The notes beneath the pieces are model-generated. The model saw nothing but the letters and a program-made list of their open reading frames with translations, made no database searches and was not told the origin of the DNA. From the NCBI GenBank assembly GCA_040290295.1, contig PSMW01000017.1:6840-70839 (forward strand): a DNA stretch of 64,000 nucleotides, in the 5' to 3' direction. The position numbers and the translations under genes are program-made. Source of the DNA: Ignavibacteria bacterium (lineage in GTDB: Bacteria > Bacteroidota > Ignavibacteria > UBA10030 > UBA6906). This document shows positions 4,919-52,798 of this stretch, one piece after another (the first letter of the stretch is position 1; each line of letters opens with the position of its first letter).

Positions 4919-4935
4919 GCTTCACTGTACCTCGT

Positions 4936-5355: not shown

Positions 5356-5367
5356 TGATTCTCCTGT

Positions 5368-10472: not shown

Positions 10473-10478
10473 AACAGC

Positions 10479-11027: not shown

Positions 11028-11055
11028 CCCCATCCCTATCTCAACGGAGGACTCG

Positions 11056-12461: not shown

Positions 12462-12937
12462 GATCGATGCGATCGTTGTTCGTCATGATTGTGCGGGAAG
12501 CTGCGCTGATCGCCTTCGCCGCAGTGCTTCTCGGATTCGGGTATGGTTTCGTTATGAAGAAGGGGCTGTTCGCCCCGACTCAACCCACGAGCAACCTTCC
12601 TGTAGCACCACCCGCGCCAACGTTCATCGACTACGAAGAGGCACTCCGCTGTTTCCGAGAAGGCTCAGCACTCTTTGTCGATGCACGTCACGAGTACGAC
12701 TACAAGCTCGGACACATCCGTGGGGCGATCAACGTTCCGCTGAAGGACTTCGACCTTGCGACTTCGCCGCTAGCACCAACACCGAAGAACCAATTGATCG
12801 TGACGTACTGCGATGGGGCTGAGTGCAACTCCAGCATCGAGCTGGCGCAGAAACTCGCTGCGGCAGGATTCACCAATGTCAAGATGTTTTTTGGGGGATG
12901 GAATGAATGGCAACAGCACCACTTGCCGACGGAGTGA
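12458..12937 (+). CDS. membrane-anchored rhodanese-like domain protein
   Basis: N-terminal TM, then a rhodanese fold (FVDARHEYDYKLGHIRGAINVP ... VTYCDGAECNSS ... GGWNEW). Start overlaps the upstream stop. Confidence 0.8.
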   Translation: MRSMRSLFVMIVREAALIAFAAVLLGFGYGFVMKKGLFAPTQPTSNLPVAPPAPTFIDYEEALRCFREGSALFVDARHEYDYKLGHIRGAINVPLKDFDLATSPLAPTPKNQLIVTYCDGAECNSSIELAQKLAAAGFTNVKMFFGGWNEWQQHHLPTE

Positions 12938-12962
12938 CAATCAAGATGTTCGGAGTGAAACA

Positions 12963-13466
12963 ATGAAAGCGCTGAGAAAGGTGATCGACAATGCGTTCGT
13001 GGCGCTGAGCGCACGCATGCTGCTCGGGTTCATCTTCGTCGTTGCTAGCACCGATACGATCGCCGACCCGACGGCGTTTGCCACTTCGATTTCGTATTAC
13101 AAGATCGTCGGTGCACCACTTACGCTCATCATTGCCACCGTCCTTCCGTGGCTGGAATTGTTGTGCGGGCTCTTTCTTCTTTTCGGCATGCTCACCAAAG
13201 GCAGCAGCGGACTCATTCTCCTCATGCTGGTCGTCTTCACCGGTGGCGTTCTCTCCGGTATTGCCCGCGGTTTAGATATATCGTGTGGGTGCTTCACGCG
13301 AGATCCCACCGTGGATAAGATCGGGTGGCTGAAAGTGTCCGAGAACCTTCTGCTCATCGTGCTGGGCTTTGTGTGTCTTTTCACCAACTCCACTCGGTTC
13401 ACTCTCGTGCATGGGGTCGATCCTGATTCATCCCCTGCACGCCGCTCGGCATCCGATGCGTCATAA
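12963..13466 (+). CDS. DoxX/MauE family membrane protein
   Basis: 4-TM protein with a SCGCF motif. Start moved to ATG 12963 (MKALRKV...). Rhodanese plus MauE/DoxX is a common pairing. Confidence 0.7.
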   Translation: MKALRKVIDNAFVALSARMLLGFIFVVASTDTIADPTAFATSISYYKIVGAPLTLIIATVLPWLELLCGLFLLFGMLTKGSSGLILLMLVVFTGGVLSGIARGLDISCGCFTRDPTVDKIGWLKVSENLLLIVLGFVCLFTNSTRFTLVHGVDPDSSPARRSASDAS

Positions 13467-13491
13467 TCCTCATCATCGGCGTTGACCTTGC

Positions 13492-14060
13492 GTGGGGCGA
13501 CAAGAAGCCCGACGGCGTATAAGCAATCTATTCATCGGCACAGACAACGGAACAGGCACAGCCGTACACATGCCACCGGATGATAATATCTTGCCCGCCC
13601 AGTGCTTCGCAACAACATCTTCTATCTTAACTGGCTTTCTTCTTCACCTGAAGGCGGAACGATCCAGGGCGGAGGTACACTGACCTACTCGAACATCTAC
13701 AACCGTGATAGCTCAACCTACACGCCGCCTCCGAACGCGATCAACTTCAAGCGCTACCCGAGCTTTGTCAACCCGGCATCAGGCGATTTCTCCCTCCGAT
13801 ACTTTTCGCCGAGCGTCGATTCTGGAGACCCAAGTGACTCTTTTGCTCTTGAGCCTGTCCCAAATGGGAATCGCATTAATCAAGGTCATCAAGGTAACAC
13901 TCTGCTCGTGCCGGACCACTGGAACCTTCCCGCCACTGGAGGATGGATTGCCAGCGGACCTGTTCCCTCACCTTCAGGAATCGCTTGGATCGGCACCATC
14001 GCCTTGCTGAATGTGGCAGTATTTTATCAGGCTCTTGAGAATAGATTTAATTTTTCGTAA
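13492..14060 (+). pseudogene. C-terminal fragment of a right-handed beta-helix (pectin-lyase-fold) secreted protein, internally frameshifted
   Basis: Two overlapping frames (13492..13683, 13602..14060). The second carries the typical family tail ...NNIFY...YSNIY...FVNPASGDFSLRYFSPSVDSGDP...PNGNRIN.G..GNT. There is no N-terminal part or signal peptide upstream. Confidence 0.45.
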
Positions 14061-14206
14061 GAATGGACCAACATTCCGAGGAGGTACCTCCTGATGCACG
14101 TGAACAAGCCGCCAACCCAACCGCAGCCTCCATCGATACGGAGCGCTGAACGAAGACTCGGAAGAGACACTCTCCTCGCCCCCCCCACACACACCTTTTC
14201 CTCGAT

Positions 14207-14509
14207 ATGGCGAATCGTCTTGCCGTCAGCTTTCCATATAACGAACACGATATCCGAGAGATAAAGAAAATTTCCGGACACAGATGGCATCCCAATCAAA
14301 AGTGCTGGACCGTTCCGTTTAGTCCTGAGAACACACAGCAGCTTTTAGCACTGTTCGATGGAAAGAAGGTGAACGTAGCCCCTGAGCTTCGAGCACGGCT
14401 GGGCGGGGCCAAAGCAACTATAGAACTGCCTCCAGTCTCGGTCCAATCCACTGGTGGACTTTGCCGCCCGCCCCGTCTCTGGTGGGCAAGAAGGCCGTGC
14501 CGAGGATGA
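14207..14509 (+). pseudogene. N-terminal stub resembling the small N-terminal domain of some tyrosine recombinases (possible truncated integron integrase)
   Basis: The first ~60 aa (SFPYNEHDIREIKKISGHRWHPNQKCWTVPFSPENTQQLLALF) match, from memory, an F/YPY...G.RW....K.W.vP module seen ahead of recombinase cores. The rest is Arg/Pro/Gly-rich and stops; no catalytic domain follows in any frame. Confidence 0.3.
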
Positions 14510-14764
14510 TCGATATGACCGTCTTGAATATCATCTGTGTAACTGCTCTACGAAAAAGTAATGAACGTGGAAGAAGGAGTCAAGGAATTCCGGAAAGGCC
14601 AGGATGTCTCAGTTTCCGCGGACAGCCGATAGGCTGACGAGCACAATGTAGGCAGGGTAGGCGACTGATGCAAGAGAAAAGTGAAACGATTTAACGTGCG
14701 ACTCATCCCGATTTTTACCGGGACATAAGGGTGGGAAGTGAGTCGCACTTGTAAAAAAATAATG

Positions 14765-14793
14765 TTGACGATGTGCAGGAAAGTTAGCAAATT
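14765..14793 (+). promoter_or_regulatory. candidate cassette promoter (sigma70-like TTGACG-17-CAAATT)
   Basis: TTGACG at 14765-14770, a 17-nt spacer, CAAATT at 14788-14793. It faces the cassettes about 125 nt upstream of the attI-like crossover point. The -10 is weak and this is by eye only. Confidence 0.2.
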
Positions 14794-14856
14794 CGCGGCG
14801 ATGAAAGACAAGGTGGACAGGTTATGACCAAGACTGGGAACGAAGCTATAAGACAA

Positions 14857-14926
14857 ATAGACGAAGTTCGTCTATTACGCCGTAATGGGAATATAGACGA
14901 AGTTCGTTAACTCACTAGTTATAGGC
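14857..14926 (+). other. attI-like primary recombination site
   Basis: 19-bp palindrome ATAGACGAAGTTCGTCTAT (14857-14875). Its 15-nt left part repeats directly at 14893-14907, followed by CGTTAAC-tcacta-GTTATAGGC. GTTATAGGC is the exact complement of the 5' box of the first attC (GCCTATAAC). Confidence 0.45.
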
Positions 14927-14957
14927 AATTGCCCGCACTAAGGAAGGAGTAGTCTCA

Positions 14958-15890
14958 ATGGCAAATCTATTCTGGAAGCAAAAGGGGAAGAAGACACTCA
15001 ACCTTGTCTCTACTCCGTTTGCTTCTGAGGAAGAATTCGAGAAGGTCATCTTTGAAACGAAGGAGATACTCGAAGACATTTTTCTCATCAAGCGACAAAT
15101 CCGAGGCGGCAAGAAGGCTGGCATTCCTGACATTGTTGGCATCGACAACGACGGCAACGTGTGCATCGTTGAGATGAAAAATGTTACCATTGACGCTTCT
15201 GTCATTCCTCAAGTTTTGGCTTATGCGTTCTGGGCACAGAAAAATCCTGACTCCATCAAGAATCTTTGGCTTGAAGCACCCAAGCAACCAGAAGATGTTG
15301 TCGTAAATTGGGACAATTACGAAGTCAAAATAATCATCATTGCTCCCTCAATCGAGCATTCAACTCTTGAACTCGTAAACACTATCACGTATCCCGTTGA
15401 CCTGATTGAAATCAAACGCTGGGTCGAAGGTCCGAATCAGTTTCTTCTTGTTAACAAGTTGGAACCCGAGCAACCGAAGAAAGTTCGTGCGGTTCGAGGT
15501 CTCGAAACTTACGACTGTGCTTTCTACGAGAGCCATTACAACAAACTTAGCGTCAATGCGTTCTTGAGCTTTGCTGAGGAAACCGAGCATCTTATCAAGT
15601 CGAAGGGTTGGCCCCTCGAAATGAAGTTCAACAAGCACTACTGCGGTTTCAAGCACGGCTTCTTCAACGCCTTTGGCATCAAGTGGATCGGCTCTAAGAC
15701 GTTTGCTTTCTTTTTCAAGCTACCAAAGTCTGCTGCCGAGAAGACTCAACCCGAAGGTCTCAAGATGGATCGATACGAGGATCAATGGAAGGAAGCGGTC
15801 TACAAGGTCGATCCATCAAAAACCAAAGTCAAAGCCTTCTTGCCACTCTTTGAGAAGGCTCTCAATTCTGTAACTGGAAAGGTTGAGTGA
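14958..15890 (+). CDS. PD-(D/E)xK nuclease (NucS/DUF91-like N-domain) fused to an uncharacterised C-terminal domain; cassette 1
   Basis: GIPDIVGIDNDGNVCIVEMKNV = D...(D/E)xK nuclease core in the NucS-like context (...QVLAYAFWA). The C-terminal half (KHYCGFKHGFFNAFGIKWIGSKTFAFFFKLP) looks like the DUF4268/DUF5655-type module. Strong SD AGGAAGGAG. Confidence 0.7.
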   Translation: MANLFWKQKGKKTLNLVSTPFASEEEFEKVIFETKEILEDIFLIKRQIRGGKKAGIPDIVGIDNDGNVCIVEMKNVTIDASVIPQVLAYAFWAQKNPDSIKNLWLEAPKQPEDVVVNWDNYEVKIIIIAPSIEHSTLELVNTITYPVDLIEIKRWVEGPNQFLLVNKLEPEQPKKVRAVRGLETYDCAFYESHYNKLSVNAFLSFAEETEHLIKSKGWPLEMKFNKHYCGFKHGFFNAFGIKWIGSKTFAFFFKLPKSAAEKTQPEGLKMDRYEDQWKEAVYKVDPSKTKVKAFLPLFEKALNSVTGKVE

Positions 15891-16082
15891 GCGGGCAACT
15901 GCCTATAACAAGCAAAACACCGACGCATCATCTTTTGATAAGGATTATAGATGTCGCTCAATGCTGTTGCTCACAATTTGGTTTGCGCCGCCCGCCGCGA
16001 GAGAATTAGTCTTTTGTAGCAGCGGTCGTCGCATCATTTTGTAGTTCGCAACAGCACTGCGGTGTTTTGCTAAACGTTAGAC
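15891..16082 (+). repeat. attC site 1
   Basis: Starts 1 nt after the stop. 5' arm GCGGGCAACTGCCTATAAC-AAG-CAAAACACCG; 3' arm CGGTGTTTTG-CTAAAC-GTTAGAC (12-bp perfect L box, GTTRRRY core at 16076-16082). Confidence 0.8.
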
Positions 16083-16128
16083 GGAATGCCATCACCAATT
16101 AACTCATATCACAAGAAAGGAGTTTCAT

Positions 16129-17730
16129 ATGCCAAGCATACTCAAAGGAAGATGGGAGCCAGTCTATATTGGCAACAATCCCAGTGCTGGAGTTCTCAAC
16201 TCACAGCAAACTGCCGTTCATGCTTGCTTAGCGTACAACCCAAACGACGGCACATGGAAAGTTCTTTAGTTTCGTGCTGCCGATCTCGAGGAAGGAAACA
16301 CCTGGGTCAAGACACGCATGTGGCGTTCTGCATCAACGAGCCAGATTACTGCGCAGAGAATTCCTGATTGGCCAGGCGGAACAGAGAAGCCAAGAATATT
16401 CTGTGGAGGCCATGCGTTCATGCACGATGGCAAGCTCTTCGTTGCTGGAGGAAATCTTGGTCAAGTCGTGCAACCTTTTAGGGGTCTAAACTACGCATAC
16501 ATCTTTGATCCAACGATAGCAGACGAAAACACAAAGTGGGGTTACTTAGGCTCACCCGGATCACCGAACCGAATGTCAGCGGGAAGATGGTACCCAACGG
16601 TGACTCTTCTCCCAGATCGCCGTCTGTTGGTAATGTCCGGGTATATCACCGAGAGCCTGCCTGATCCCTACAATCGCACTCCTGAGATGTGGAATCCTCA
16701 AACTGGTCAATGGATTCGGCGAACTGCTCAACAAGCCAAGATGCCTTTCGACGCTCTTTACCCTGGTGCACATGTCGTTCCACGAGGACAGTATCAAGGG
16801 CAAGTGTTCTATTCCATGCCGATGCTGCAATCGTATGTCTTCGATCCCAATTTCGATGGTAATCCCAACGGCAGCACTTACTATTGGAAAGCTGTTCCGA
16901 ACACCGCGCGTTCGTTCTTTCGAGATGGAGGCTGTTCTATTCTTCTCCCGATCAAGTTGAGCCCAAGCACAGAAGCGAAAGTGTTAATCCTCGGCGGGAT
17001 GCAGGATGATCCTGCCTTTGGTACTGCAGTTGCAACAAACACAGCCGAGATCATCGACCTTGGTGCCGCAAACCCTGTTTGGCAATCTGCAGCTTCAATG
17101 ATAATGGAACGCACCCATGCCAATGCGATCATCCTTCCCGACGGAAAGATTCTTGTCACTGGCGGCAAGCAGATCTCCTTCAGGGAAGGTGCCGTAACCT
17201 TTGCTGAAATGTATGATCCTGACACCAATACCTGGACGCTCCTTCCCCCGAGCAGCTACACAAGGATGTACCACTCTGCTTCTATTCTACTACCCGATGC
17301 AACCGTGTGGGTTGGTGGAGGGGACACTCTGGGCGGAAGTCCTTCGAGCGATTTCATTGAGATATACAAGCCGGGATATTTGTTTGATCCTCCTGATCCC
17401 CAAGTGCGACCGAATATTCTTTCCATCAGCACAACTCAGATCACATACAATAGTGCCTTCACCATTGAAGTAAATTATCCTGTTGATTCAGCTATTCTCA
17501 TAAGCCTTGGCGCAACCAGCCATGCGTTTGACCAGAGCCAACGGGCAATTTACCTCAAACTTAGTTCTCTTCCGCCTAACGGCACGAACCCGTACAGCGT
17601 CACAACCCCGGCGAATGCAAACATAGCTCCACCAGGCTATTACCTGTTCTTTGTTTTGAGGCCGAAGTCGGCGAGTCAATCCGGTATGAATAGAATCCCG
17701 TCTGTTGCGAACTTCCTGAGATTGGCATAA
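16129..17730 (+). pseudogene. galactose oxidase/glyoxal oxidase-like protein (kelch propeller + DUF1929-type C-domain) with in-frame TAG; cassette 2
   Basis: ATG 16129 with SD AAAGGAG. In-frame TAG at 16267-16269 (..GTWKVL*FRAADLEEG..), then track ORF 16318..17730 in the same frame. Family text RMYHSASILLPDATVWVGGG and ATSHAFDQSQR...APPGYYLFFVL. Confidence 0.7.
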
Positions 17731-17741
17731 CCGGGAGGACA

Positions 17742-19457
17742 GTGATGGACTACGTGTTCTCTCGACCGATGAGGTCGTCCTCAATCCTATTTCTTTTTGC
17801 TTTTCGTTTCGTGATTGCTCAATGGTCAAACGACCCGAACGTCAATACACCAATCTCGACTGCTAACGGCGATCAGCAAGTACCTGCTATCGTGAGTGAT
17901 GGTGCACGAGGGGCTATTATTACATGGAAAGACACACGGAACACTATTTGGCCCGATATTTACGTTCAACGGGTTAATCAGTCTGGTATCATCCAATGGA
18001 CGACAAATGGAGTTCCAGTTGCCGTGGGAGGATTTCGAATGCATGAGTTTCCTAGGATGTCGATTGACGGAACTGGCGGCGCCATAATTGCGTGGAGGGA
18101 ATCACCTCCACAGCCTAATCTCAATTATGACATCTACGCACAGCGGATTAACACATCGGGTGTTGTGCAATGGCCGTCAGGTTGCATTCCAATTTGTGCA
18201 TTGCCGGGCCATCAAGGACCATATTCCATTGTGTATGATGGCACGAGAGGCGCATTCATTCTTTGGGGAGATGGTAGGAGGGTCGGCTTCAGTGACATCT
18301 ATATACAGCGTGTAAATGCCCTTGGACAAGCGCAATGGGATTCAAACGGGGTTCCCATATTTACGTTATACACCCCGGTGGGCCCATCCGCTACAATGAC
18401 AAACGATGGTGCAGGAGGCGTTATCATTACGTGACGTGGCATGACATGCGTAATCTCAACGACATTAACATCTACGCGCAACGTGTGAACGCATCAGGAA
18501 CAACGCTTTGGACATCAAACGGTGTTGCCGTTTGCACACACCCGGCCTATCAGCGTGAGCCTAAGTATTGTCAGCGACGGTTCCGAGGGAGCTATAATCA
18601 CATGGGGCGATGACCGCAATACTCCTGGCTCGGATTACGTTTTTGCTCAGCGGATCAGTGCTTTAGGCGCAAGACAATGGGCAACAGACGGAGTACGCAT
18701 ACCTGGTTTGGGCGCATCGCCTCATTCCATTGTAGGTGACGGAGCGGGTGGTGCAATCATCGCTGGTATCAGCCACAATAACGTCCGTGCACACCGCATC
18801 AGTGCCGAAGGAGCTCTGCTCTGGGATTCTAGTGGCGTTGTCCTTTCTACCGAACCTATAAATTACAACACAGCTATCGCGAGCGATAATGCGGGTGGCG
18901 CAATTGTCGCATGGCTCGATACCCGCAATGACTCAACGCATAACATCACCGACATCTATGCCCAACGCGTAAATGCTTCAGGTGCTGTCATGTGGCAAAC
19001 CAATGGAGTTCCAATCACAACGGCTCCCGGCAATCAATTCAATCTCGCAATCACAACCGATGGGGCCAGCGGAGCGATCATCGCATGGACAGATTGGCGC
19101 AGTGGCACCAACGCTAACATCTACGCACAACAAGTAAGTGCAAATGGGATTCTTGGGCAAGTGACTTCGGTCCAGAAGGAAGAGACTCTACCGAAAGACT
19201 TTGCTATGCTTCAGAACTATCCCAATCCGTTTAATTCCTCGACTACGATCGAGTTCGAGATTCCTCGGTCGACATTTGTCAGAGTTGTTATAGGCAATTA
19301 TCTCGGCCAGCAAATTGCAACCTTAGTGAGCAGACAACTTGCGCCCGGAAAATATCGTGAGTCCTTCAACGCAAGTAAGCTTTCAAGTGGCGTCTATTTC
19401 TACAAGCTTCTAACATCAGAATCATCAATCGTAAAGAAAATGTTATTGCTGAGATGA
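17742..19457 (+). pseudogene. secreted repeat protein with T9SS C-terminal sorting domain, broken by two frameshifts; cassette 2
   Basis: Signal peptide, about 9 repeats of ...DIYAQRVN.SG...W..NGV..., and a C-terminal NYPNPFNSSTTIEFEIP...GVYFYKL T9SS sorting-domain pattern. The frame changes at 18429-18438 (ACGTG duplicated) and back at about 18545-18560 (track ORFs 17742..18434, 18335..18613, 18522..19457). Confidence 0.7.
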
Positions 19458-19468
19458 TGATGGCACTA

Positions 19469-19603
19469 CGCCTAACAAGCGTGTTCACGACGCTCACATC
19501 GTTTGATATGGATTATAGAGTTCGCTCAACACAGTTTGCCGCGAAAAGAATTGGTCATTTGATAGCGGCAAACTGCGCTGCGTGCTTTTGGTAAACGTTA
19601 TGC
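19469..19603 (+). repeat. attC site 2
   Basis: 5' box CGCCTAAC (19469-19476), shared internal consensus CGACGCTCACATCGTTTGATATGGATTATAGAGTTCGCTCAA, 3' arm GCGTGCTTTTGGTAAAC-GTTATGC (19597-19603). Confidence 0.75.
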
Positions 19604-19674
19604 GTCATGGCCGCCAGCAACAAAATGATTATCTAACCAACTAAGTTAATCACAAGCACTAGGAGGATCTCATC

Positions 19675-20241
19675 ATGGCAGAATTGATAGTTCCCATCAC
19701 ACTCAAACAGTACTGGTATGAGGATATCACGAAGGCGGAAGCAATCAGACGATTGGATGGCCGAAACCTCGATCCAGAAACTCGTGCTGAAATAGAGCGG
19801 GACATTCCAGAACGCTCTCGACATTACCTGACTTTCGAAGCCCCATTTTTTCGAGAATATCTTGATTGGGGAGATGGCGTTGCAAGTCTCATTCTCCTCC
19901 TTCCCATGAAGGTGGGAGTAAACAATTTTGTTGTGCAAGGTTTCGTAGATAAGTCTGGGATATCTGGGGTCTGGCGCTCTGAATTCACTGTTGATTTACA
20001 AAAAGGACTGTTCGAAAATGGCAAGCCCGTTCCATTTAATTATTCTAACGAGCCTGTCCAACTAAATCTTGATGTCACGTTCGTCGTCCCCGAGCCTGAA
20101 CCAGAGAGACCTCGTTGCAGTTGCAGAGCCTGCGAATGGGTTCATTCGTTGCTCGGAATTCACTGGGCCGATCCTTTGTGTTGCTTGGGTTGCTGTTTCA
20201 ACATAAATCACAGGCCCGCTCTTGTTTTCGAGCAATTCTGA
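19675..20241 (+). CDS. hypothetical protein with Cys-rich C-terminus; cassette 3, gene 1
   Basis: 188-aa ORF with strong SD AGGAGG. No family recognised. C-terminal CSCRACEWVHSLLGIHWADPLCCLGCCF cluster. Confidence 0.6.
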   Translation: MAELIVPITLKQYWYEDITKAEAIRRLDGRNLDPETRAEIERDIPERSRHYLTFEAPFFREYLDWGDGVASLILLLPMKVGVNNFVVQGFVDKSGISGVWRSEFTVDLQKGLFENGKPVPFNYSNEPVQLNLDVTFVVPEPEPERPRCSCRACEWVHSLLGIHWADPLCCLGCCFNINHRPALVFEQF

Positions 20242-20244
20242 ATC

Positions 20245-20670
20245 ATGAAAACAATTCTACGCAACGAGGTCCTAGCAATTCTCTTTGGTTTGAGTGCGTG
20301 TTCTTGGGTACCACACTGGGCTTGCCACTATTATCGACTCGAAACCGAAAGCACATTCGTTGTGGGGAATTGGAGCTTCTCTTCAACGGATAGCATTGCA
20401 AGTTTGCTGGTTTACGGATCGCTAATCGTACTAAACTTGGTTTCCATTTCCGTTAGTAAGCTGCGGGTTTCGGCATCTCTGATCACTGGCCTTTGTCATG
20501 TTATTATTGGATCGATTCACCTATATCGTTTGTGGAATCCCTTCACATTTGAAGTGTTTGGATACACATGGTCTTATGGTGCATCAGTTAGAGAAGTGGT
20601 AATAGTGGTTCCGTTTGGTTTACTTTGCTTGTTCGTTGCTTCGAAACTGCATCACCAGAAAGCTTTGTAA
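20245..20670 (+). CDS. hypothetical small membrane protein (about 4 TM); cassette 3, gene 2
   Basis: 141-aa ORF starting 3 nt after the upstream stop codon. Four hydrophobic segments, N-terminal CSWVPHWACHYY. No family recognised. Confidence 0.55.
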   Translation: MKTILRNEVLAILFGLSACSWVPHWACHYYRLETESTFVVGNWSFSSTDSIASLLVYGSLIVLNLVSISVSKLRVSASLITGLCHVIIGSIHLYRLWNPFTFEVFGYTWSYGASVREVVIVVPFGLLCLFVASKLHHQKAL

Positions 20671-20675
20671 TTTTC

Positions 20676-20834
20676 ATGGTCAATTTGCTGGCGGCCACGA
20701 ACGCATAACAACCAAAAGCACGACGCTCACATCGTTTGATATGAATTATGGAGTTCGCTCAATCCCGCCAGCCACAAGAAAATTATTCATTCATAGTGGC
20801 TGGCGGGACTGCGTGCTTTTGGTGAACGTTATGC
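20676..20834 (+). repeat. attC site 3
   Basis: 5' arm TTGCTGGCGGCCACGAACGCATAAC-AA-CCAAAAGCAC; 3' arm GTGCTTTTGG-TGAAC-GTTATGC (20828-20834). The R boxes are perfectly complementary. Confidence 0.8.
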
Positions 20835-21011
20835 GTCATGCATGCCAGCACAAAACAGTCTGCTTATCTACTCGCGGAATTTTTTTTGAGAGTGATGAAG
20901 CAAGCGCTGTGGTTGCCGGATAGTCGTTCGCATCAAGAAGCAATCGGCGTCACTCGAAGTCGTGAGCATTCGGCAACCACCTCCGACGCGTGACTTAGTA
21001 AGTGTGTACAA

Positions 21012-21148
21012 GCTGGCATGCACGAACCCATAACAATCGCAAGCACCGACGCTCGTTTTGTTATAGCTTTTGATTGAACTCGCTCCATCCCGCACATCAT
21101 TTATAAAAGTTGGAAGTGCGGGACGGCGTGCTTGCTCGAACGTTAGTT
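21012..21148 (+). repeat. attC site 4
   Basis: 5' arm GCTGGCATGCACGAACCCATAAC-AATCG-CAAGCAC; 3' arm GTGCTTG-CTCGAAC-GTTAGTT (21142-21148). Confidence 0.75.
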
Positions 21149-21186
21149 GCAATTGCCCGTCACATGGATAGGAAAGGGCTGCCAAA

Positions 21187-22314
21187 ATGAACAAGACTAG
21201 TCTCTTCATCATCTCGACGATTGTGATGTTTGTTTCTTGCAAAGATATGGGAAGTGAACCTCCACCGATTCCACCTCCTCCACCGCTTCCTGATGACGTT
21301 GCACTCTACGTTTCCATGGACAGCTACCAAGACTGCGGCATTTGTGTCCTCAATGCAAACACGCTTGAACGGGTTGACACATTAGTTACGAGACCCGGAG
21401 TACCTCGGACGATTGAGTTCTCACCTGATCACAGCATATGGTATTCGATATGGGCCACAGGTGGACCGAACCATTCTCTCTTTTCCGGAGATGTACACCC
21501 CCTTTCAGTCCGAAATGCAATCCCTCTCCAGTACTCAAAATACGCATTGGTAAGAAGTGCGGGCCAACGCTATTTGATTGCTTACGGCGACAAGGGCATA
21601 GATGTCTTTGATCGTGCTACTCTAAGTCTAGTGCATCAGGACACATCTTCCTTCTTTGGCAGATCCACCAGAGTCATCGCTTCCCCCAATCATAACCTTA
21701 TCTATTTCACGGGATGGGAAAACAGACAACTCGTAGGATTTGGAGTTTACAATCTCGATTCCATGAAACTCACAGATACCTTAAGACTTTTTGATCGGGT
21801 TCAATACCCCGGGCTCAAGGATGCCGACCTCGTTATTTCGCCCGACGATAGATTCCTTTTTCTCTCTGCTTGGAATTGGCGAGGCGGAGGAGGGTTCAAT
21901 TCCTTCTTCATCATAGATATCTCTCAGAAGCGTCTTTTGTATGAATTCCCCTGCGGCCCTTTTGCGAGATTGGCCTTGAGTCCAGACGGACGAAGTGTTT
22001 ACATCAGCAAAGATGGGTTCAATCTATACATATTCCCTCCCACAAATCACCGCACGTATAGATACGAGGTGCAGACAAACACAATCTATAACTTTTTGAA
22101 CCGAGGTGGCTCAACAGGTATGGTCGTTGCAGATGACAACAGGACTGTCTTTCTCTCAGATGGCGGCGAGGTCATCAAGGCCGACGCCCTCACCGGGATA
22201 ATCCTCAGCACATACTCGGTTCCTCTCGATTCGCTGGGCCGCCTGACAAGCGGTATTCGCAACATCAGACTTGGAAGATACCCTGCGGAAACTCATTCTG
22301 CTGGAAGGAGGTGA
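21187..22314 (+). CDS. lipoprotein with beta-propeller repeats (YVTN/lactonase-like); cassette 5
   Basis: Lipoprotein-type signal (MNKTSLFIISTIVMFVSC), a Pro-rich linker, and repeated ...SPD(G/H/D)...(Y/F)... blade-like segments. Confidence 0.6.
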   Translation: MNKTSLFIISTIVMFVSCKDMGSEPPPIPPPPPLPDDVALYVSMDSYQDCGICVLNANTLERVDTLVTRPGVPRTIEFSPDHSIWYSIWATGGPNHSLFSGDVHPLSVRNAIPLQYSKYALVRSAGQRYLIAYGDKGIDVFDRATLSLVHQDTSSFFGRSTRVIASPNHNLIYFTGWENRQLVGFGVYNLDSMKLTDTLRLFDRVQYPGLKDADLVISPDDRFLFLSAWNWRGGGGFNSFFIIDISQKRLLYEFPCGPFARLALSPDGRSVYISKDGFNLYIFPPTNHRTYRYEVQTNTIYNFLNRGGSTGMVVADDNRTVFLSDGGEVIKADALTGIILSTYSVPLDSLGRLTSGIRNIRLGRYPAETHSAGRR

Positions 22315-22349
22315 TCGCATGTGCTCCAAAACAAGACCGCCGCCATTGT

Positions 22350-22447
22350 GCATCTAACACAATGACGGCAGTAGCCACCAAACAATCGACACCCATGGAT
22401 TGACGCTGGGGTTGCAGCCCAACGGGGCGCCGACTTGTTTGTAACCC
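22350..22447 (+). repeat. degenerate attC site 5
   Basis: 5' box GCATCTAAC is the complement (8/9) of the cassette-5 start GTTAGTTGC. L-type pairing ACAATGACGGC / GCCGACTTGT. The 3' core is poor (TTTGTAAC). Confidence 0.4.
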
Positions 22448-22507
22448 AATGTATAAAACTTGTGGTCCTTTTCCAATCCGAGGGGCCACATCATCATTGG
22501 AGTAACT

Positions 22508-23353
22508 ATGAGACACACAAAGTGTTTCGCAGCAACGCTGATCCTATCGCTCATTCTTCTGCCGCAGCTACTGTTCGCAGGCAGCGACTACTTCTGGGCA
22601 GGAGACAAGAAGGTCAGCATCGTTTCAGATCGCTCTACCCTTGTTGTTGTGTTCAAGGAAGAGAGCTATCAGAAAAATATTTCCTCCATCTATGCAAAGG
22701 TGCCGGATCTAGTCGAGGCAACCATATCCGGTGACCAGCCCATGGTGGTGCTAGTGTTTCAAACAGATCGACTCTCATCAGAACCCAGTGTCCTCCAGAG
22801 CAACGGTTTATCACCTTCAGACATCGAGTGGCATTCCTTCGGGTATTTTGTCCTGGGCTCTTCACCTCTCCGACCTCTCCGACCAACAAATCGCATTTCG
22901 TTCAAGCTGAAAGGAGGTTCCTTGCCACAACAACTCGAACGGTTCATGCAAGGGAAGGCAACCTTCGATCACACCCACTTCGGCACACCCACTGGTCGCA
23001 TCACCTTTACTAGCACCTCCGGCTCCTGGCAGGGCATCACGCTTACGGGCGCGAATAATTCCTCCCTCCAATACTGTGACCTCAACTACCCCATTTCTCC
23101 CATCGTCGCCACAAACACAAGCAATCTCACAATCAACAACGTGAGCATCGGTAACTCCAGCTTTCAAAATTATCCCCACGATGCCGCGATGGCGTTCTAT
23201 AATTCGTCGCCTACAATCAGTTCTGTCGTCATCAATGGACAGTCAAATTCTTGGAACGGTGTCCGCTTCGCACAGGGTTCCACTGGCTCGATTACAAATA
23301 GCACCATTCAGAACTCCGGCGCAGCGTGGGCAGATTGCGGATTCATCTGTTAG
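22508..23353 (+). CDS. secreted beta-helix repeat protein, N-terminal part only (C-terminus missing or frameshifted)
   Basis: Signal peptide MRHTKCFAATLILSLILLPQLLFAGS. From about aa 180 come beta-helix style repeats (ITLTGANNSSLQYCDL, ATNTSNLTINNVSIGNSS, GSTGSITNSTIQNSG). It ends abruptly; repeat-like text continues in another frame to about 23531. Confidence 0.55.
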   Translation: MRHTKCFAATLILSLILLPQLLFAGSDYFWAGDKKVSIVSDRSTLVVVFKEESYQKNISSIYAKVPDLVEATISGDQPMVVLVFQTDRLSSEPSVLQSNGLSPSDIEWHSFGYFVLGSSPLRPLRPTNRISFKLKGGSLPQQLERFMQGKATFDHTHFGTPTGRITFTSTSGSWQGITLTGANNSSLQYCDLNYPISPIVATNTSNLTINNVSIGNSSFQNYPHDAAMAFYNSSPTISSVVINGQSNSWNGVRFAQGSTGSITNSTIQNSGAAWADCGFIC

Positions 23354-23673
23354 AGGCTCTTGCTGGATCGTTAACAGCCAAGGGTCCCGTGCAATTGCGC
23401 GAAAGTGCTCGTTGCTCAATGTTTTACGAGATTCCTTGCGATTTCGGTTGACTTTACCCACCGCCCCATCCTATATTTTTGCAGGTGCGGGGGTGGCAGG
23501 GGCTTTTATCCCAGTGAACAAAAAGCGATGACACGCAATGATCTCGGTGAAGCACTGACCGCTTGATAGAGAAAGAACGGATTGCAAACGATTATATTGA
23601 CCCCGATTTCGAGCGAGCATATTTTTTGCTTTAATTAAACTCACAGTTGTGAGTATTCGGAAAGGGTCAATGT

Positions 23674-23919
23674 ATGGAAGGGTTACAGAAACGATGGAGT
23701 ACAAGAAAGAAGGCGGAGGTTGTACTCCAGCTGTTGAGAGGAGAAGTTCTTGATGCAGTAAGCCGTGAGACGACGGTGCCGGTCAGTGTACTGAGCCGGT
23801 GGAGAGAGGATTTTATCGAAGCGGGGATTGCTGGCCTTAAAGGAAAAAGTCTCGATGATGCACGGATCGCCAAGTTGGAGAAGAAGGTTGGTCAACAGGC
23901 GATGGAGATCGGACTGTAG
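23674..23919 (+). CDS. IS3-family transposase OrfA (HTH/leucine-zipper part)
   Basis: WSTRKKAEVVLQLLRGEVLDAVSRETTVPVSVLSRWREDFIEAG... followed by a coiled-coil tail, the typical IS3 OrfA layout. Confidence 0.75.
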   Translation: MEGLQKRWSTRKKAEVVLQLLRGEVLDAVSRETTVPVSVLSRWREDFIEAGIAGLKGKSLDDARIAKLEKKVGQQAMEIGL

Positions 23920-23933
23920 AAAAAAAAGAGGCG

Positions 23934-24864
23934 GTGGAACCAGAGCAACCACGGGAGTTTGCCGAGGTCATGATGAAAGAGAAATCGGAGACGACGGGCA
24001 AGCATTATCCGATGCGTCTGGTGTTACGTGTGGCAGAGTATTCTTCAGCAGCGTGGTATGGCAAGCGGCAGAAGAAGCAGGTGGTCGAGCGCCGAGGGCC
24101 CAAGCCTGTGGTAAAGGATGAAGAACTTCTGAAGTTGATTGGCGAGGTAATCGAGACGTGTCCGTTTCATTCAGAAGGATATAAGAAGGTACACCTACGC
24201 TTGCGTCGGCAAGGCATTCGAGTCGGGAAACAGCGTGTTTTAGGCTTGATGCGAGCGAACAACTTGTTAGCTCCCGTGAGACCGAAAAGCAATGGGGCGT
24301 CGCGACCCCACGATGGGACCATCATCACCGAACTGCCGAATCATCTGTGGGGCACGGATAGGAAACAGTTCCGGACAGAGGAAGACGGATGGTGCTCACT
24401 TCTTTGGAGTGATTGATCACTATAACGATGAAGTACTTGCTTGGCACAGTGCAAAGAAAGGCAATCGCTTTGCTGCGTTGGAACCGGTGCGACAAGCCGT
24501 CAAACACTGTTACCGAGCGATTGGTCAAGGCATTGCTGATGGGACCGGATTGTTCTTGCGCAGCGATCACGGCACTCAATACGAATCGAAAGATTTCCCC
24601 AATGAACTGAAGTTCTTAGGGTTGAAGCATTCGCCATCGTTTGTGAGAAGCCCGGAGTGCAACGGCATCATCGAACGGTTTCATCGAACATTGCAGGAGC
24701 AGGTGTTTGATATTTATCAGTTCAGGAATCTGGAAGAAGCGCGACGGGTCATTGCGGAGTTTATCGACCTCTACAATCATCAGTGGATTATGCACCGACT
24801 CGGCGGTCTTTCACCGGTGGAATACAGAAATCAACATCAAAAAGTTTTCTTAAAAAGTGCTTGA
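23934..24864 (+). pseudogene. IS3-family transposase OrfB (integrase core), internal +1 frameshift
   Basis: Its frame is -1 relative to orfA and is open from 23859. DDE residues in HLWGTD, SDHGTQY and NGIIERFHRTLQE. The reading frame switches at about 24388-24395 (track ORFs 23934..24416 and 24292..24864). Confidence 0.7.
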
Positions 24865-24996
24865 CTAATTGGGGCCAATACACAAGGTTGTTATCACTGT
24901 AGCCCAAGGAACAATGTTCGTAGTAGGAAATAATCTCAACGGTGGTAGTAACACAGAAATCAGGGCTTATGGACAACTGAATGAGGTTGAACAATT

Positions 24997-26083
24997 ATGA
25001 CATTCACATCTCGATTGATAATACTTCTTGCTGCAATAACTTTCCTTCTGCAGTTTAGCTGCAAGGATAGCGGAACGGGTCCGGCGCCGGGTGAGTGGCA
25101 ACCGCTAGGTTGGGAAGGTAAGCTCGTGCCCCAGCTCGTGTTGGTCGACAATTATCTCTTCGCGTGTGCTGCGAGAGATGGGTTATACAGACTGAACGTG
25201 GCTGTTGCAGAGGAGCAGTGGCAGTATCTCGGATTTGCTGATTCAACCCCAAGTAGGCAACTTGACTATGGTGTGACATCACTATATCACAACTCTGTTA
25301 CCAATGAACTGCTTGTGGGTCTTGGTGCCCAACCAGAGTCGTTGTTCATCGGTATTTTTCGTTCAGCTGATCTGGGCTTAACATGGATACCATCGGATAG
25401 TGGAATTCGAACTGGCCAATATCCAAGAAGTAGCGAAATATCATCGCTGAGTGGTTCACCTCACTCATCGAACACTGTATATGCCGGCTTGCTTGCAACC
25501 ATTTACAAAAGTGATGATGGAGGAAGGTTTTGGGCACCACTCTATGGGGTGCGTGGGGCTGGTGGACTGGGAATCAATGCGTTACGAGTTGCTCCTTCTG
25601 CACCAAATGAGATTTGGGCGGGGGGGTGAAACTTCAAGATTCGCACCGACACTTGAGCATTCGACCGATGGTGGAAATTCTTGGCGTCGGATATTTTTTC
25701 CCGCTAACTTTGGCCCGTACTATGTTGACAACGTAATCTATGATATTGCAGTGGATCCAATAAACGAAAATGTAGTTTACTTTGGGATGTTAGGTGTGAT
25801 TGCAAAGACAACAGACAAAGGAGAGACCTTCCAGAGAATACTCGGATGGGAAGACGGGATTTATCGGCATTGGCGACTCGCGATCAATCCGAGTAATCCA
25901 CAAGAGTTGCTTGCAACGGGATTCTACTTGTACCGCACTACAGACGGTGGGCAGTTTTGGCAGAAAATAACCCCACCTGATAACAGAAACAATCTTTATG
26001 CGCTTGCCGTCGACTGGCAACAAAGAATTCTTTTTACGAGCGCTTCCAGTCCCGGTAATGGAATTTACAGGTTGCGTTTTTGA
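24997..26083 (+). pseudogene. BNR/Asp-box repeat lipoprotein interrupted at a G7 tract
   Basis: Lipoprotein-like signal (LLQFSC) and Asp-box motifs SADLGLTW, SDDGGRFW, STDGGNSW, TTDKGETF, TTDGGQFW. The frame shifts at GGGGGGG 25620-25626; removing one G gives ..IWAGGETSRF... Confidence 0.7.
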
Positions 26084-26181
26084 GTTCGCCGATGATAATG
26101 ATCCCGCTACACGAACGAGATCCGCTAACTGGTTCTTCCTTTCCAACGAAACAATTCACTCTATTCACAAGGAGAACAACA

Positions 26182-28065
26182 ATGAACACAGTCAGAAATA
26201 TCAGAAACTGTCAGCGTGGTGCGCTCCTGATCGTGGTTGCACTTCTTGCACTGACAACGAGCGATCTTTACGCTCAACTCCAGCGGTTCACTCTGCAAAA
26301 CAGAGAATATCGCTTGGAAGGAAACAAATGGTTTACCTTCTTTGAAGGAAAGAAGGGAGACGAGATCATTCCTCAACGTTTGATTGTGAGACTAAAAGAC
26401 AGAGGGGATGTCGAGAGCTTCGACTTTCAGCGACTGAACATCAGCGGCGTATCGATGGGAAGCCGTCGGTTTCTTAACGGTTTCTATGTCTTGACAATCT
26501 TGTCGGACCGTTATGCTTTCCAGATCGCATCTGTACTTGAAAAAACCGCTCTTTTCGATGTATTGGAATTTGATGCCTACGGAACATGGGACGGAACACC
26601 TAACGACCCGCAATATCCCAACCAATGGAACTTGCCCAAGATTCGGATGCCTCAGGGGTGGGACATAACAACGGGGAACAGTTCCGTTATCTTAGGCATC
26701 ATCGACAGCGGGACGAGATACACGCATGAAGACATTGATGGAAACATTTGGGTCAATCCTGCGGCAGACCGCAATGGAAACGGGCGACCCGATTTTTTCC
26801 CGTTTTCACAAGGCGGCGATCTTGATGGAATTGACAATGATGGTAATGGGTTTGCGGATGATCTCATCGGTTGGGATTTTTATCAGTCCGATAATAACCC
26901 CGATGATGCGTTTGGGCACGGCACTAATGTCGCCGGTGTATCTTCAGCTCAAACCGATAATTATGAAGGTGGAGGTTATCGAGGCGTAGCCGGGGTAGCT
27001 GGTGGATGGCGAAACCAGAAGGGGGCAAGCGTAATGGTGCTCAGGATAGGCGATACCGCGCCTGTCACCTCGTACACTGCGCAAGCAATTGAATACGCTG
27101 CCGTAAATGGTGCCGGGGTCATTAATATCAGCTCGTCTCTGAGCAATCTGACCGTACTTCAAAATGCTGTGAATCTTGCCGTCAACACATACGGGGTGGT
27201 GATCGTTGCGTCCGCCGGGAACAACGGCAGTGATCCCGATCCATCTATCCGATATCCTGCGCGCTACTCAAACACAATTGCCGTCGGTGCCACTGACCAG
27301 AATGACAACCGTCGGTCATACAGTGCCTACGGCCCGGAAATGGATGTCGTTGCACCGGATGGAGTACCAAGTACAACGATGACAGGAGGGTATACAAGCA
27401 GTGTGGCAGGCACTTCTTTTTCCGCTCCTCACGTTGCCGGTCTTGCCGCACTCATCCTGTCAGTCAATCCATCGCTCACCTGGCAGCAAGTGCGAGAAAC
27501 GATTCATCTTAGTGCCGATAAGGTACCAGGTATGGGCGGGCAGAACTTCACCAACCAATACGGCTACGGCCGCATCAATGCTCTTCGCGCTGTCGGAACG
27601 GCTTATGTGACAAACCATCCAGATTATGAATTCGTCTACAATTCCTCTTCGCTTTCTCACTATGACAATTTCAATATGATTTTCCATGCCGGGCCCAATT
27701 GGTGCAATGCCGCTGGTACATATTACAACACAGAGCGGCACAGACTTCTCATTCAAGTCAATCGCTCGTTTACGGAAATACCGCTGGCTTGGTACCTTGG
27801 ACCAGTAGGATATAGCTGGGCTAATCCGAATAACGCCACAGCGTGGTTGAGCCAGACAGTTAACGCAAATACGATTCGCTATGAGACTGTTTTCTATCGT
27901 CTCAATCAGGGAAACTTCTCGTGTGAAAATCGTTGGGCACCGTTCGATCCCAATTCGGTAGAAAGAGCCTACGCATATTTGGGTAGGCCTCTCGTTGCCC
28001 CCGCCATCTCTCTGGTTTCACGCAATCACCTGTTCCCATCTATCGATATAGCTCGGGCGATATAG
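26182..28065 (+). CDS. S8 family (subtilisin-like) serine peptidase
   Basis: Signal peptide after ATG 26182 (SD AAGGAG). Catalytic triad contexts GIIDSGTRYTHEDI (D), HGTNVAGV (H), GTSFSAPHVAGLAAL (S). Confidence 0.85.
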   Translation: MNTVRNIRNCQRGALLIVVALLALTTSDLYAQLQRFTLQNREYRLEGNKWFTFFEGKKGDEIIPQRLIVRLKDRGDVESFDFQRLNISGVSMGSRRFLNGFYVLTILSDRYAFQIASVLEKTALFDVLEFDAYGTWDGTPNDPQYPNQWNLPKIRMPQGWDITTGNSSVILGIIDSGTRYTHEDIDGNIWVNPAADRNGNGRPDFFPFSQGGDLDGIDNDGNGFADDLIGWDFYQSDNNPDDAFGHGTNVAGVSSAQTDNYEGGGYRGVAGVAGGWRNQKGASVMVLRIGDTAPVTSYTAQAIEYAAVNGAGVINISSSLSNLTVLQNAVNLAVNTYGVVIVASAGNNGSDPDPSIRYPARYSNTIAVGATDQNDNRRSYSAYGPEMDVVAPDGVPSTTMTGGYTSSVAGTSFSAPHVAGLAALILSVNPSLTWQQVRETIHLSADKVPGMGGQNFTNQYGYGRINALRAVGTAYVTNHPDYEFVYNSSSLSHYDNFNMIFHAGPNWCNAAGTYYNTERHRLLIQVNRSFTEIPLAWYLGPVGYSWANPNNATAWLSQTVNANTIRYETVFYRLNQGNFSCENRWAPFDPNSVERAYAYLGRPLVAPAISLVSRNHLFPSIDIARAI

Positions 28066-28147
28066 CTCGGGAACAGTAACCTGCAATCTCTCCCAGGGAA
28101 CCGGCAATATTACCTATTCGTGGACTGCGAGTCATGTCCCAAGCGGT

Positions 28148-28384
28148 GTGAGCGTCACATACAACGGTAACCTTGCTACCATCTGTTACCTCTGCGACGG
28201 GCCAATGGGTGTCAAGGGCTCGGAGAAATCAGGTAGTGGAGAACCTAACGATCCAATGGCGATCTTCACCCTGAGATGCACTGCGTCAAATGGTGCCGGG
28301 TCATCAACGGGTACCTTTTATCCTTCGCTCGCTTACAGCCCTCCTCCACCACCGCCTGGCGGTTGTCCGTTAACTGACCCTTGA
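28148..28384 (+). CDS. ORF fragment, possibly a displaced C-terminal domain of the S8 peptidase
   Basis: The frame is open from 28052 and reads ..SSGTVTCNLSQGTGNITYSWTASHVPSGVSVTYNGNLATICY.., Ig-like-domain style text, directly after the S8 stop and the 14-bp duplication. Confidence 0.3.
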   Translation: MSVTYNGNLATICYLCDGPMGVKGSEKSGSGEPNDPMAIFTLRCTASNGAGSSTGTFYPSLAYSPPPPPPGGCPLTDP

Positions 28385-28411
28385 CACACCTAGTTCGTCA
28401 CATCTCTTAAA

Positions 28412-29045
28412 GTGCCTACTTTGGAGTTTTTTCTGGCCGCTTTCTCGTTTCTGATTGTTGCGGAGGGTCGTGGACAAGACCTTGTGATTCTCAGGAGCTT
28501 CGCGAGGTTTCGACTGAACAAACGCAGGTCTACGAAGTTCCCCCTGCTAAACGGATTAGCTGCCCCTCATACGCAAGGACAAGAAACGGACAGTGTCAGA
28601 GGGATTTTTCTTTACTCTGGTATCGGTTTGGTCGAAGTTCTCACGATCGGCGTTGGGAAACAGTTGACTCAAGACCTTTCCATATCTCTGAAATATGCTA
28701 CGACTTGGATTGGCAAAGGAGCAATGATACTTCCCAACAGTGCGACGGGCATAGGACTGAAGTTGACTTACCATAAAGACTTAGCCCCTCTTGCTCTTAA
28801 CGCGATTTCCTTCGATTACATTCTCTATCTCCACAGTTCCCTTGGTTGGCAGTATAGGCAGGCTGGACAGGTACGATCCTTTCATCAAGGGGCATGATTT
28901 TGACATCAACGTAGGCAAGGAAACAGTGAACGAGTCTGGCTTCCACTTCTTCTGGGCGGTAGGCTTCTGCATCAGTGCCGCCAAGGAAGCAGGTGTCTTG
29001 TATGCTCCATCAATAAGAATCGGTATCAATTTCAACTTCATATAG
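28412..29045 (+). pseudogene. small outer-membrane beta-barrel-like protein, frameshifted
   Basis: Signal-like N-terminus (GTG 28412) and alternating beta-strand pattern. The second frame (28791..29045) ends ...YAPSIRIGINFNFI, a typical OM-barrel terminus. Frames join at about 28860-28897. Confidence 0.45.
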
Positions 29046-29084
29046 TTAGGAGACCGAGAAATGACCAAGCTTATTTTGATGATT

Positions 29085-29158
29085 GTGTAAAATACCGACG
29101 CTCCATCATTTGATAAGGATTATAGATGTCGCTCAATGCTGTTGCACACGTTTTGGGA
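29085..29158 (+). repeat. truncated terminal attC (5' half only)
   Basis: ACCGACGC...TTTGATAAGGATTATAGATGTCGCTCAATGCTGTTGC. A 37-nt stretch (29108-29144) is identical to attC1 (15934-15970). Similarity ends at about 29158 and no 3' L/R boxes follow. Confidence 0.7.
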
Positions 29159-29536
29159 GATTTTCCCATCCTCCGTTGGTAATTTCCGGGTGAAGTTCCT
29201 CTAGAGCGTTTCGGCTATGCAACCAAAGATTCTCGCTTTCGTCTGGACCGATCGACTGCCTCCAGAGCAGTAATCAACACCGACATGGATTTTTGTATCC
29301 GCGTACGTTCCTGACTTGCTTCTCCATTCGCATGAGTGCTTTCACGAGGTGTGGCGCAAACGTGGAGATAGCCTGCCGTTCATGTGCCTTCGTGCTGCAG
29401 CTCAAAGCCACAATCGCGTTCACCCTTGCTCAAGAGGTCGCGATATCAGCCTCAGGGTGAATATCGCCATAAGGAAGAGATGAGGTGATCGGACTCCGAC
29501 GAACGCCAGGTTGGTGGTTGATATCTAGAACTGTGA

Positions 29537-52228: not shown

Positions 52229-52302
<74 letters not shown>

Positions 52303-52380
52303 CTGAAGCTTCTTGCCATACCCTACCGTGTGAATTGTTCGGCTGCTAAGGTATGGGCTGCTGCGCAGCACTACGCACTG

Positions 52381-52466
52381 TGCCGAGGATGGGACTTGAA
52401 CCCATACGGACCCGAAAGTCCACAGGATTTTAAGTCCTGTGCGTCTACCAATTCCGCCACCCCGGC
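52381..52466 (-). tRNA. tRNA-Leu (TAA)
   Basis: GCCGGGGTGGCGGAATTGGTAGACGCACAGGACTTAAAATCCTG + long variable arm + GGGTTCAAGTCCCATCCTCGGCA. Anticodon loop CTTAAAA. Confidence 0.9.

Positions 52467-52725: not shown

Positions 52726-52798
<73 letters not shown>

Follow-up and report, generated by a model that had tools for sequence, protein, structure and literature searches.

Remains of an integron-type cassette array in an Ignavibacteria chromosome, most probably served by an integron integrase-like recombinase without the I2 domain

Sedentary chromosomal integrons, as defined with IntegronFinder (Cury et al. 2016, PMC4889954), consist of co-oriented gene cassettes that are bounded by related imperfect palindromes (attC sites, with RYYYAAC and GTTRRRY boxes) and joined by crossover at G|TT, with an attI site beside the integrase gene; they carry defence genes among their cargo and decay by loss of the integrase and by insertion of insertion sequences (ISs). 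Their integrase, IntI, has an additional domain (I2), the textbook hallmark of these enzymes, which is held to have enabled an Xer-like enzyme to recombine attC sites in folded single-stranded form (Messier & Roy 2001; PMC7790495). IntegronFinder requires this domain, and treats a cluster of at least two attC sites without an integron integrase nearby (clustering distance 4 kb) as a CALIN, a cluster of attC sites lacking an integrase (PMC4889954). Complete integrons have been reported with this program in Chlorobi and Ignavibacteriae (PMC9024848). Here we analyze a 64,000-nucleotide stretch from an Ignavibacteria bacterium (contig PSMW01000017.1, positions 6,840 to 70,839; "the window"), in which a preliminary description made from the letters alone had proposed an integron-type cassette array without an intact integrase. 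Covariation within the palindromes, a test of cassette boundaries, a homologous attI and an integrase stub support this proposal. The array shares the traits of chromosomal integrons and CALINs listed above and is very probably a decayed integron-type gene-capture platform in an Ignavibacteriota chromosome; its lost recombinase was most probably an IntI-like enzyme without I2, as judged from sequence comparison with related loci.

Four palindromes (attC1 to attC4; Table 1) lie at the positions originally claimed, and inspection of the sequence places each directly after the stop codon of a + strand open reading frame (ORF). The boxes read from the letters are also present, CTATAAC, GCCTAAC, GCATAAC and CCATAAC on the 5' side and GTTAGAC, GTTATGC, GTTATGC and GTTAGTT on the 3' side. 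A home-built covariance model (R1), made from these four sites and five sites of metagenome-assembled genomes (MAGs) with a structure written by hand, matched the four palindromes and, partially, 29083-29228, with no other match in the window (E about 1e-36 to 4e-9, all on the + strand, the same with and without filters). The motif TTTGATAnGRATTATRGAnnTCGCTCAA occurs four times in the window (15934, 19502, 20735 and 29109), each time inside the array and on the + strand, against an expectation of 0 from 100 shuffles. By both counts, the palindromes are confined to the array within these 64 kb and to one strand. The common internal consensus ascribed to all sites holds for attC1 to attC3 and for the piece at 29089-29156, and fails in attC4, where the module is reduced to its flanks, CGACGCTC ... 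TCGCTCCA. The 29089-29156 piece, which is 90% identical to attC1 15914-15981 and has lost both R boxes, is the truncated distal end of the array. Between 14 and 29 kb, GC content is 0.46-0.50, down from about 0.55, in line with the AT-richness noted earlier.

Bottom-strand folding, suggested in the preliminary description, showed attC1 and attC3 to be much more stable than shuffled sequences and attC2 and attC4 less so (Table 1); attC2 folds weakly because its L arms no longer pair. Under a strict generic grammar of R and L boxes, attC3 was the sole site in the 64 kb to pass. A relaxed version returned 47 matches versus 12-36 in shuffles, too noisy to yield extra sites between 22 and 29 kb, and R1 detected no attC between 22.4 and 29.1 kb with filters on or off. 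A fifth, degenerate palindrome proposed at 22350-22447 was not confirmed, since its GTT box is missing and R1 gives no match there. The stretch has an inner stem and what could plausibly be an R'' arm (ATCTAAC), which in part complements the first bases of cassette 5, the 5' arm ...GCCATTGTGCATCTAAC being in part the reverse complement of GTTAGTTGCAATTGCC; it is a relic attC at best.

The internal motif and the same architecture recur in eight Ignavibacteriota/Bacteroidota MAG contigs, and R1 found 3-9 co-oriented sites in each of several MAG contigs. The sites are R''-L''...L'-R' palindromes, conserved in structure over sequence and bearing RYYYAAC and GTTRRRY boxes. From the outside inward, they consist of an outer stem of ~18 nt, the R box (..TAAC / GTTA..), an asymmetric unpaired spacer of 2 nt on the 5' side and 5 nt on the 3' side, an L helix of 11 bp (uninterrupted in 39/40 sites), a bulge of 30-65 nt on the 5' arm only, with conserved flanks (CG|ACGCTC ... 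TCGCTCAA) and a variable interior, and a variable hairpin at the tip. Total length ranges from about 45 nt to 341 nt. The hand-written structure comprises the R helix, the L helix and two inner helices. With it, a hand alignment of 9 sites (4 from the window, 5 from MAGs) showed pairing in 92% of cells and compensatory change in 18 of 31 pairs, compared with 28-48% of cells in controls with a slid alignment (28-50% over all controls). A 40-site alignment gave 91.7% and 28 of 31; it was fitted to R1 and is thus biased toward the structure, a bias of which the 9-site alignment is free. TAAC and GTTA are invariant and pair in all 40 sites, while in 10-16 of these the three outer pairs of the R box do not form in situ. 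Relative to the sites of chromosomal integrons and CALINs, the attCs described here differ in the 11-bp L helix, the 2/5-nt spacer, the long outer stem and the one-sided bulge, and the L box of the folded bottom strand lacks extrahelical bases in 39/40 sites.

The boundaries of the cassettes had been the most telling part of the preliminary description, which read the start of each cassette as complementary to the 5' arm of that cassette's own attC. For every site, we scored the pairing of the 18 nt upstream of TAAC with two stretches of equal length, one following that site's own GTTA and the other following the GTTA of the site before it. The preceding-site flank won in 30/30 consecutive pairs (4 in the window, 26 in related MAG arrays), with a mean pairing score of 10.6 versus 2.5 for the own flank and 3.0 +/- 2.0 for random pairings. 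For attC1 to attC4 the scores were 13, 10, 13 and 11 of 18 against the preceding flank and 1, 3, 7 and 4 against the own, so the earlier reading stands for every intact site, and the pairing reaches ~18 nt outward from the R box. Because the flanks pair with the preceding site throughout, the units are permuted at G|TTA, as for former circles, each cassette carrying the distal part of the preceding site. This pattern indicates that the cassettes were once closed by a G|TTA crossover.

Some sites depart from the common layout in other ways. Window 19470-19603 (attC2) and 1351-1530 of locus L006 are hybrids, with the L'' arm of one type and the L' arm of another, which suggests homologous exchange within the conserved bulge between different attCs. 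Two sites in the related loci (L008 461-801 and L005 3000-3235) are 200-341 nt long and contain extra interior sequence; they may represent nested insertions or an expanded bulge. In the closed-circle pairing of a site's own cassette, a small bulge of unequal sides (CGA facing CA, or G facing AA) recurs 5-8 nt outside the R box and is conserved over many sites, for example 20690-20702 with 19604-19615.

The array begins with a stretch (window 14842-14934) that has 79% identity over 95 nt with L013 9759-9852, the sequence directly 3' of the intact gene for recombinase P0151. Two direct repeats of ATAGACGAAGTTCGT (14857-14871 and 14893-14907) are followed by TAACTCACTAG|TTATAGGC, and L013 shares both the repeats and TAACTCACTAG|TTATAKGC. 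Given this identity, the repeats and the crossover motif, window 14842-14926 is therefore an attI, placed as expected beside the integrase gene at the array head; the sequence from 14919 onward pairs with the 5' flank of attC1. Comparable direct repeats and AG|TTA sites are present in L015, L016, L018, L019, L020 and L035. As for the cassette promoter Pc, which integrons have in or near intI or attI, no sigma-70-type match was found near attI on the + strand, in a scan that does not cover Bacteroidota-type promoters.

Upstream of attI, and co-directional with it and with the array, lies the 5' stub of a recombinase gene, which matched residues 24-117 of P0151 (tblastn, 84 bits, E 5e-20) and whose ORF continues beyond the homology to a stop at 14509. 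The gene is lost beyond ~codon 91. The distance from stub to attI is 522 nt in the window versus 973 nt in L013, with no similarity in between, and in the window ~360 unrelated nucleotides take the place of some 970 nt of gene; this filler has no second copy in the window or in the related loci (blastn). It contains a perfect 10-bp inverted repeat (GTGCGACTCA ... TGAGTCGCAC, 14698-14750) that matches nothing elsewhere. A word-indexed homologue search with the stub returned no match; a representative search found its N-terminal domain in 678 proteins, and the carriers scanned were recombinases with Phage_int_SAM_4 and Phage_integrase domains. No tyrosine recombinase signal other than the stub (14207-14479) was detected within the 64 kb. 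With four intact attCs and this stub, the array is operationally a CALIN and functionally integron-type.

Intact recombinases head co-directional cassettes in six of the related loci: P0151 (L013), P0243 (L015), P0167 (L016), P0157 (L018), P0172 (L019) and P0210 (L020/21). Each has a significant R1 match on the same strand except L018, where the contig holds just the first 30 nt of the first site (E 0.11); by eye, that fragment pairs with the crossover flank of attI. The genes upstream of the recombinase vary between loci, and the recombinase and array therefore travel together; recombinase-attI-array units with an I2-less enzyme are found in varied genomic surroundings. L008 has decayed the other way round, with the last 56 codons of the recombinase remaining just upstream of AG|TTAGTTGC and an array. 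A second I2-less subclade heads arrays of the same grammar in L035 and, in WOR-3, in L033. In L035, an attI with two repeats and G|TTAGGCG is followed by restriction-modification, GmrSD and beta-lactamase cassettes (at 3852-5733 and 9255-15079), and a gene for an IS200/IS605 TnpA and a TnpB-like gene lie upstream. R1 found no match near distant relatives of P0151 (34-41% identity) in Spirochaetaceae, Armatimonadota and a Bacteroidota single-amplified genome. One unit in L004 (796-6751) spans ~6 kb between two attCs, unusually large for a cassette, and its ORF translations include a porin-like protein, a 308-aa protein and a candidate molybdopterin-type oxidoreductase of 1090 aa.

The IntI-specific domain of ~35-40 residues near patch III is absent from each of the six intact recombinases that adjoin this attC family. 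In an alignment to PDB entries, the best solved relative was VchIntIA, with IntI residues 178-238 skipped, and the family scored 142 bits with IntI4, 122 bits with XerA and 95 bits with XerD, placing it closer by sequence to IntI than to Xer. Compared with P0123, a canonical IntI (325 bits on TIGR02249, 53% identity to IntI1), 41 residues are missing, corresponding to the ...ALSRKY...WAWQWVFP...DP..G...RHH segment. The spacing from GxKxR to HxLRH was 60-69 aa in 121 of 126 family members and 100-109 aa in 108 of 108 canonical IntIs, the latter being the proteins retrieved with one canonical IntI, many of them named 'integron integrase'. The six array-linked proteins scored 218-244 bits on TIGR02249, under its 265-bit cut-off, and five of them passed NF040815 ('site-specific tyrosine recombinase/integron integrase'). 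In a crude neighbor-joining tree, with two ad hoc outgroups and no bootstrap, the I2-less recombinases formed the sister clade of the canonical IntIs.

The N-terminal accessory domain represented by the stub occurs on some canonical IntIs and is missing from three of the array-linked recombinases; it is therefore neither diagnostic nor required. We considered this domain as a replacement for I2, a notion weakened by the same three proteins. An AlphaFold2 model of it (pLDDT, predicted local distance difference test, 78) had no significant Foldseek match in the PDB; the SMARCAL1 HARP domain ranked 4th (E 0.4, template-modeling score 0.45), and the label 'HARP-like' derives from a borderline Pfam match and is weak. 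In P0123, the canonical catalytic domain is fused directly to the N-terminal accessory domain and the SAM-like core-binding domain is missing, so that this protein is probably a deletion derivative. In L031 and L032, canonical IntIs with this N-terminal domain are encoded at the ends of contigs and preceded by ordinary genes, which suggests that co-directional downstream arrays broke these assemblies.

How the array should be interpreted depends on three contrasts. Generic repetitive extragenic palindromes, miniature inverted-repeat transposable elements (REP/MITE elements) or terminators would also produce hairpins after stop codons, and some parts of the palindromes resemble a terminator-like pattern. 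Such elements would be scattered in both orientations with unpermuted flanks, whereas here no copy occurs outside the array in the 64 kb or in the syntenic loci L009-L012, every copy has the same orientation, each pair scored shows flanks permuted at G|TTA, and elsewhere the palindromes are confined to arrays downstream of a recombinase; we regard this explanation as exceedingly improbable. A recombinase without I2 might instead run the array by an Xer-like reaction on double-stranded or cruciform sites. In VchIntIA, the I2 helix reads extrahelical bases of the folded attC (PMC7790495), and both the helix and, in 39 of the 40 sites aligned, the bases in the L helix are missing here. Yet the R and L arm sequences vary freely and are conserved as pairs only, the two arms of the putative double-stranded core site are unrelated to each other, and the bulge always sits on the same arm, so that the two strands fold differently. 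We find an Xer-like reaction rather doubtful.

The remaining contrast concerns the enzyme that was lost. The array could be an ordinary CALIN remnant, in which case the lost enzyme would have been a canonical, I2-bearing IntI of the co-directional ('inverted') type and with the same N-terminal domain. The stub shares 45-50% identity with the N-terminal domains in the 'integron integrase' proteins P0291, P0303 and P0366, and complete integrons are known in Ignavibacteriae (PMC9024848). Against a canonical enzyme, the I2-less P0151 matches the stub better and longer than canonical IntIs do (84 versus 61-66 bits, tblastn), the window attI is 79% identical to the one beside P0151, and every intact recombinase adjoining this attC family is without I2; we consider a canonical integrase unlikely. 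A decayed platform with an I2-less, IntI-like recombinase has points against it as well. The stub covers the N-terminal accessory domain only, which some canonical IntIs from Nitrospirota and Armatimonadota also carry (36-50% identity); the type of the lost protein is therefore judged from attI homology and from a match to P0151 that is modestly better. The syntenic relatives share no insertion site with the window, and hence offer no empty site or variant array for comparison. The attC-free 6.6 kb from 22.4 to 29.1 kb may not be cassettes, and the analysis covers one 64-kb contig, so that an intact recombinase may be encoded elsewhere in the genome.

In its intact form, which is present in related contigs, the element comprises a tyrosine recombinase gene and then, in the same orientation, an attI with two direct repeats, a G|TTA crossover point and cassettes each ending in an attC. 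The recombinase would insert circular cassettes at attI and excise them between attCs, with crossover at G|TTA; each resident cassette therefore starts with the 3' part of its neighbor's site. Like those of classical integrons, the attCs presumably function in folded, single-stranded form, and the cassettes would be expressed by read-through from upstream.

The cargo had been called entirely uncharacterised, which does not hold for the first two cassettes. The cassette 1 protein matches the PADLOC phage-defence candidate PDC-S18 over its full length (PDLC04944, E 3e-131), consistent with a role of chromosomal integrons as stores of defence genes; it also has a weak NucS-like nuclease domain. 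Cassette 2 holds a glyoxal-oxidase/Kelch-like gene (16130-17730) with an in-frame stop and a gene for a repeat protein with a type IX secretion system (T9SS) tail (17742-19457) with frameshifts. Apart from T9SS tails, the window cassette proteins do not recur in the related arrays. The segment beyond cassette 5 contains a beta-helix ORF (22508-23353), a frameshifted BNR/Sortilin-like gene (24997-26083), an S8 peptidase gene (26092-28065) and small ORFs. It also contains IS3-family transposase genes, an HTH orfA (23674-23919) and an orfB with HTH_21 and rve domains that is split into two frames (23934-24864); no terminal inverted repeats could be defined for this element (23674-24864). ORFs of at least 200 aa cover 49% of 13.5-29.2 kb versus 91% and 70% of the flanks. 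With the recombinase lost, cargo broken, an IS3 element inserted and the end truncated, the array is therefore static now, and will stay so unless another copy of the recombinase, encoded outside the window, acts on it in trans.

Table 1. Positions and features of the array and its head in the window
Feature	Position (nt)	Strand	Description
Recombinase 5' stub	14207-14479	+	N-terminal accessory domain and linker; tblastn with P0151
Filler	14480-14841		Where SAM-like and catalytic domains are expected; no recombinase homology
attI	14842-14926	+	Homology to L013 attI; direct repeats; crossover G14918|T14919
Cassette 1	14919-16076	+	ORF 14958-15890 (310 aa) and attC1; intact
attC1	15903-16082 (outer stem from 15891)	+	R1 match 123 bits, E 5e-30; fold z -6.5
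Cassette 2	16077-19597	+	Two broken genes and attC2; Pfam matches
attC2	19470-19603	+	R1 match 121 bits; fold z -1.7; L'' and L' arms unpaired now
Cassette 3	19598-20828	+	ORFs 19675-20241 and 20245-20670 (no family match) and attC3
attC3	20703-20834	+	R1 match 147.7 bits, E 2e-36; fold z -9.3; best-formed of the sites
Cassette 4	20829-21142	+	314 nt, doubtful 51-aa ORF only, and attC4; nearly empty
attC4	21028-21148	+	R1 match 69 bits, E 7e-16; fold z -2.4; interior divergent
Cassette 5	21143-22447	+	ORF 21187-22314 (375 aa, lipoprotein-like, no family match) and possible relic attC 22336-22447
Low-GC segment	22448-29088	+	Co-directional genes, attC-free; ORF, Pfam and R1 scans
Internal piece of long-class attC	29089-29156 (68 nt)	+	Repeat family D1; partial R1 match 43.5 bits

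To the left of the array, the gene order LOG-DinB-EamA-rhodanese-DoxX is conserved in four relatives, which were compared via the EamA gene. Beyond DoxX, the relatives continue with SpoIIE, acyltransferase, LspA and PepT genes, none of which is in the window. Synteny with L009-L011 stops at DoxX, and the array therefore sits at a rearrangement point. A search for the locus with a single protein recovered no close relative, and R1 found no attC in the syntenic loci L009-L012. Non-coding junk fills the interval between DoxX and the integrase stub (region 13480-14200), including a gene remnant at 13602-14060 that resembles the C-terminal end of a beta-helix-type protein. An Rfam scan of the window returned only four tRNAs, none inside the array; they form a cluster on the - strand (52229-52798) and are unrelated to the array.

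Compared with the known systems, the window system has the attC structure, the G|TT crossover, the attI and the co-oriented cassettes of integrons, and misses two strict-sense features, the IntI additional domain and the extrahelical bases of the L box. Its recombinase gene is co-directional with the cassettes, another difference from sedentary chromosomal integrons. Integrons with an 'inverted integrase' (the Treponema type of Boucher et al. 2007, discussed in PMC4889954) likewise have intI upstream of attI and cassettes in the same orientation; their integrases carry the additional domain and pass IntI profiles, whereas the family described here does neither. Its members are also of Xer-like length, and NF040815, which five of the six array-linked ones pass, is a profile for XerA as well as for integron integrases. 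Xer sites are double-stranded, ~28 bp long and built of two related arms, and the Xer-dependent pdif modules of Acinetobacter plasmids are discrete gene units bounded by recombinase sites. The sites described here are instead hairpins of 45-340 nt conserved by pairing, in one orientation, with a dedicated adjacent recombinase and attI.

An array in an FCB-like genome with uncharacterised cargo had been put forward as worth following up. Since integrons were already reported in Chlorobi and Ignavibacteriae (PMC9024848), that part of the claim loses weight, and what appears to be new is the I2-less recombinase family. Cury et al. 2016 mention four recombinases 'intermediate between IntI and Xer' near few attCs, and dismissed them (PMC4889954). 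Our literature search found no description of an I2-less family heading attC arrays, a negative that is no proof of novelty; this sister family of integron integrases is apparently undescribed. We see about even chances that this family, whose members are spread over several phyla (Ignavibacteriota/Bacteroidota MAGs, WOR-3 and others), runs genuine attI-attC arrays, that current tools would score many of these as orphan CALINs, and that either I2 is dispensable on these sites or a pre-I2 state has been preserved. The window itself is a decayed example, and its value is as a lead to this family. If confirmed, the family would provide a natural test case for attC recognition without I2, some orphan attC clusters would be reclassified as complete elements, and the finding would bear on the origin of integrons.

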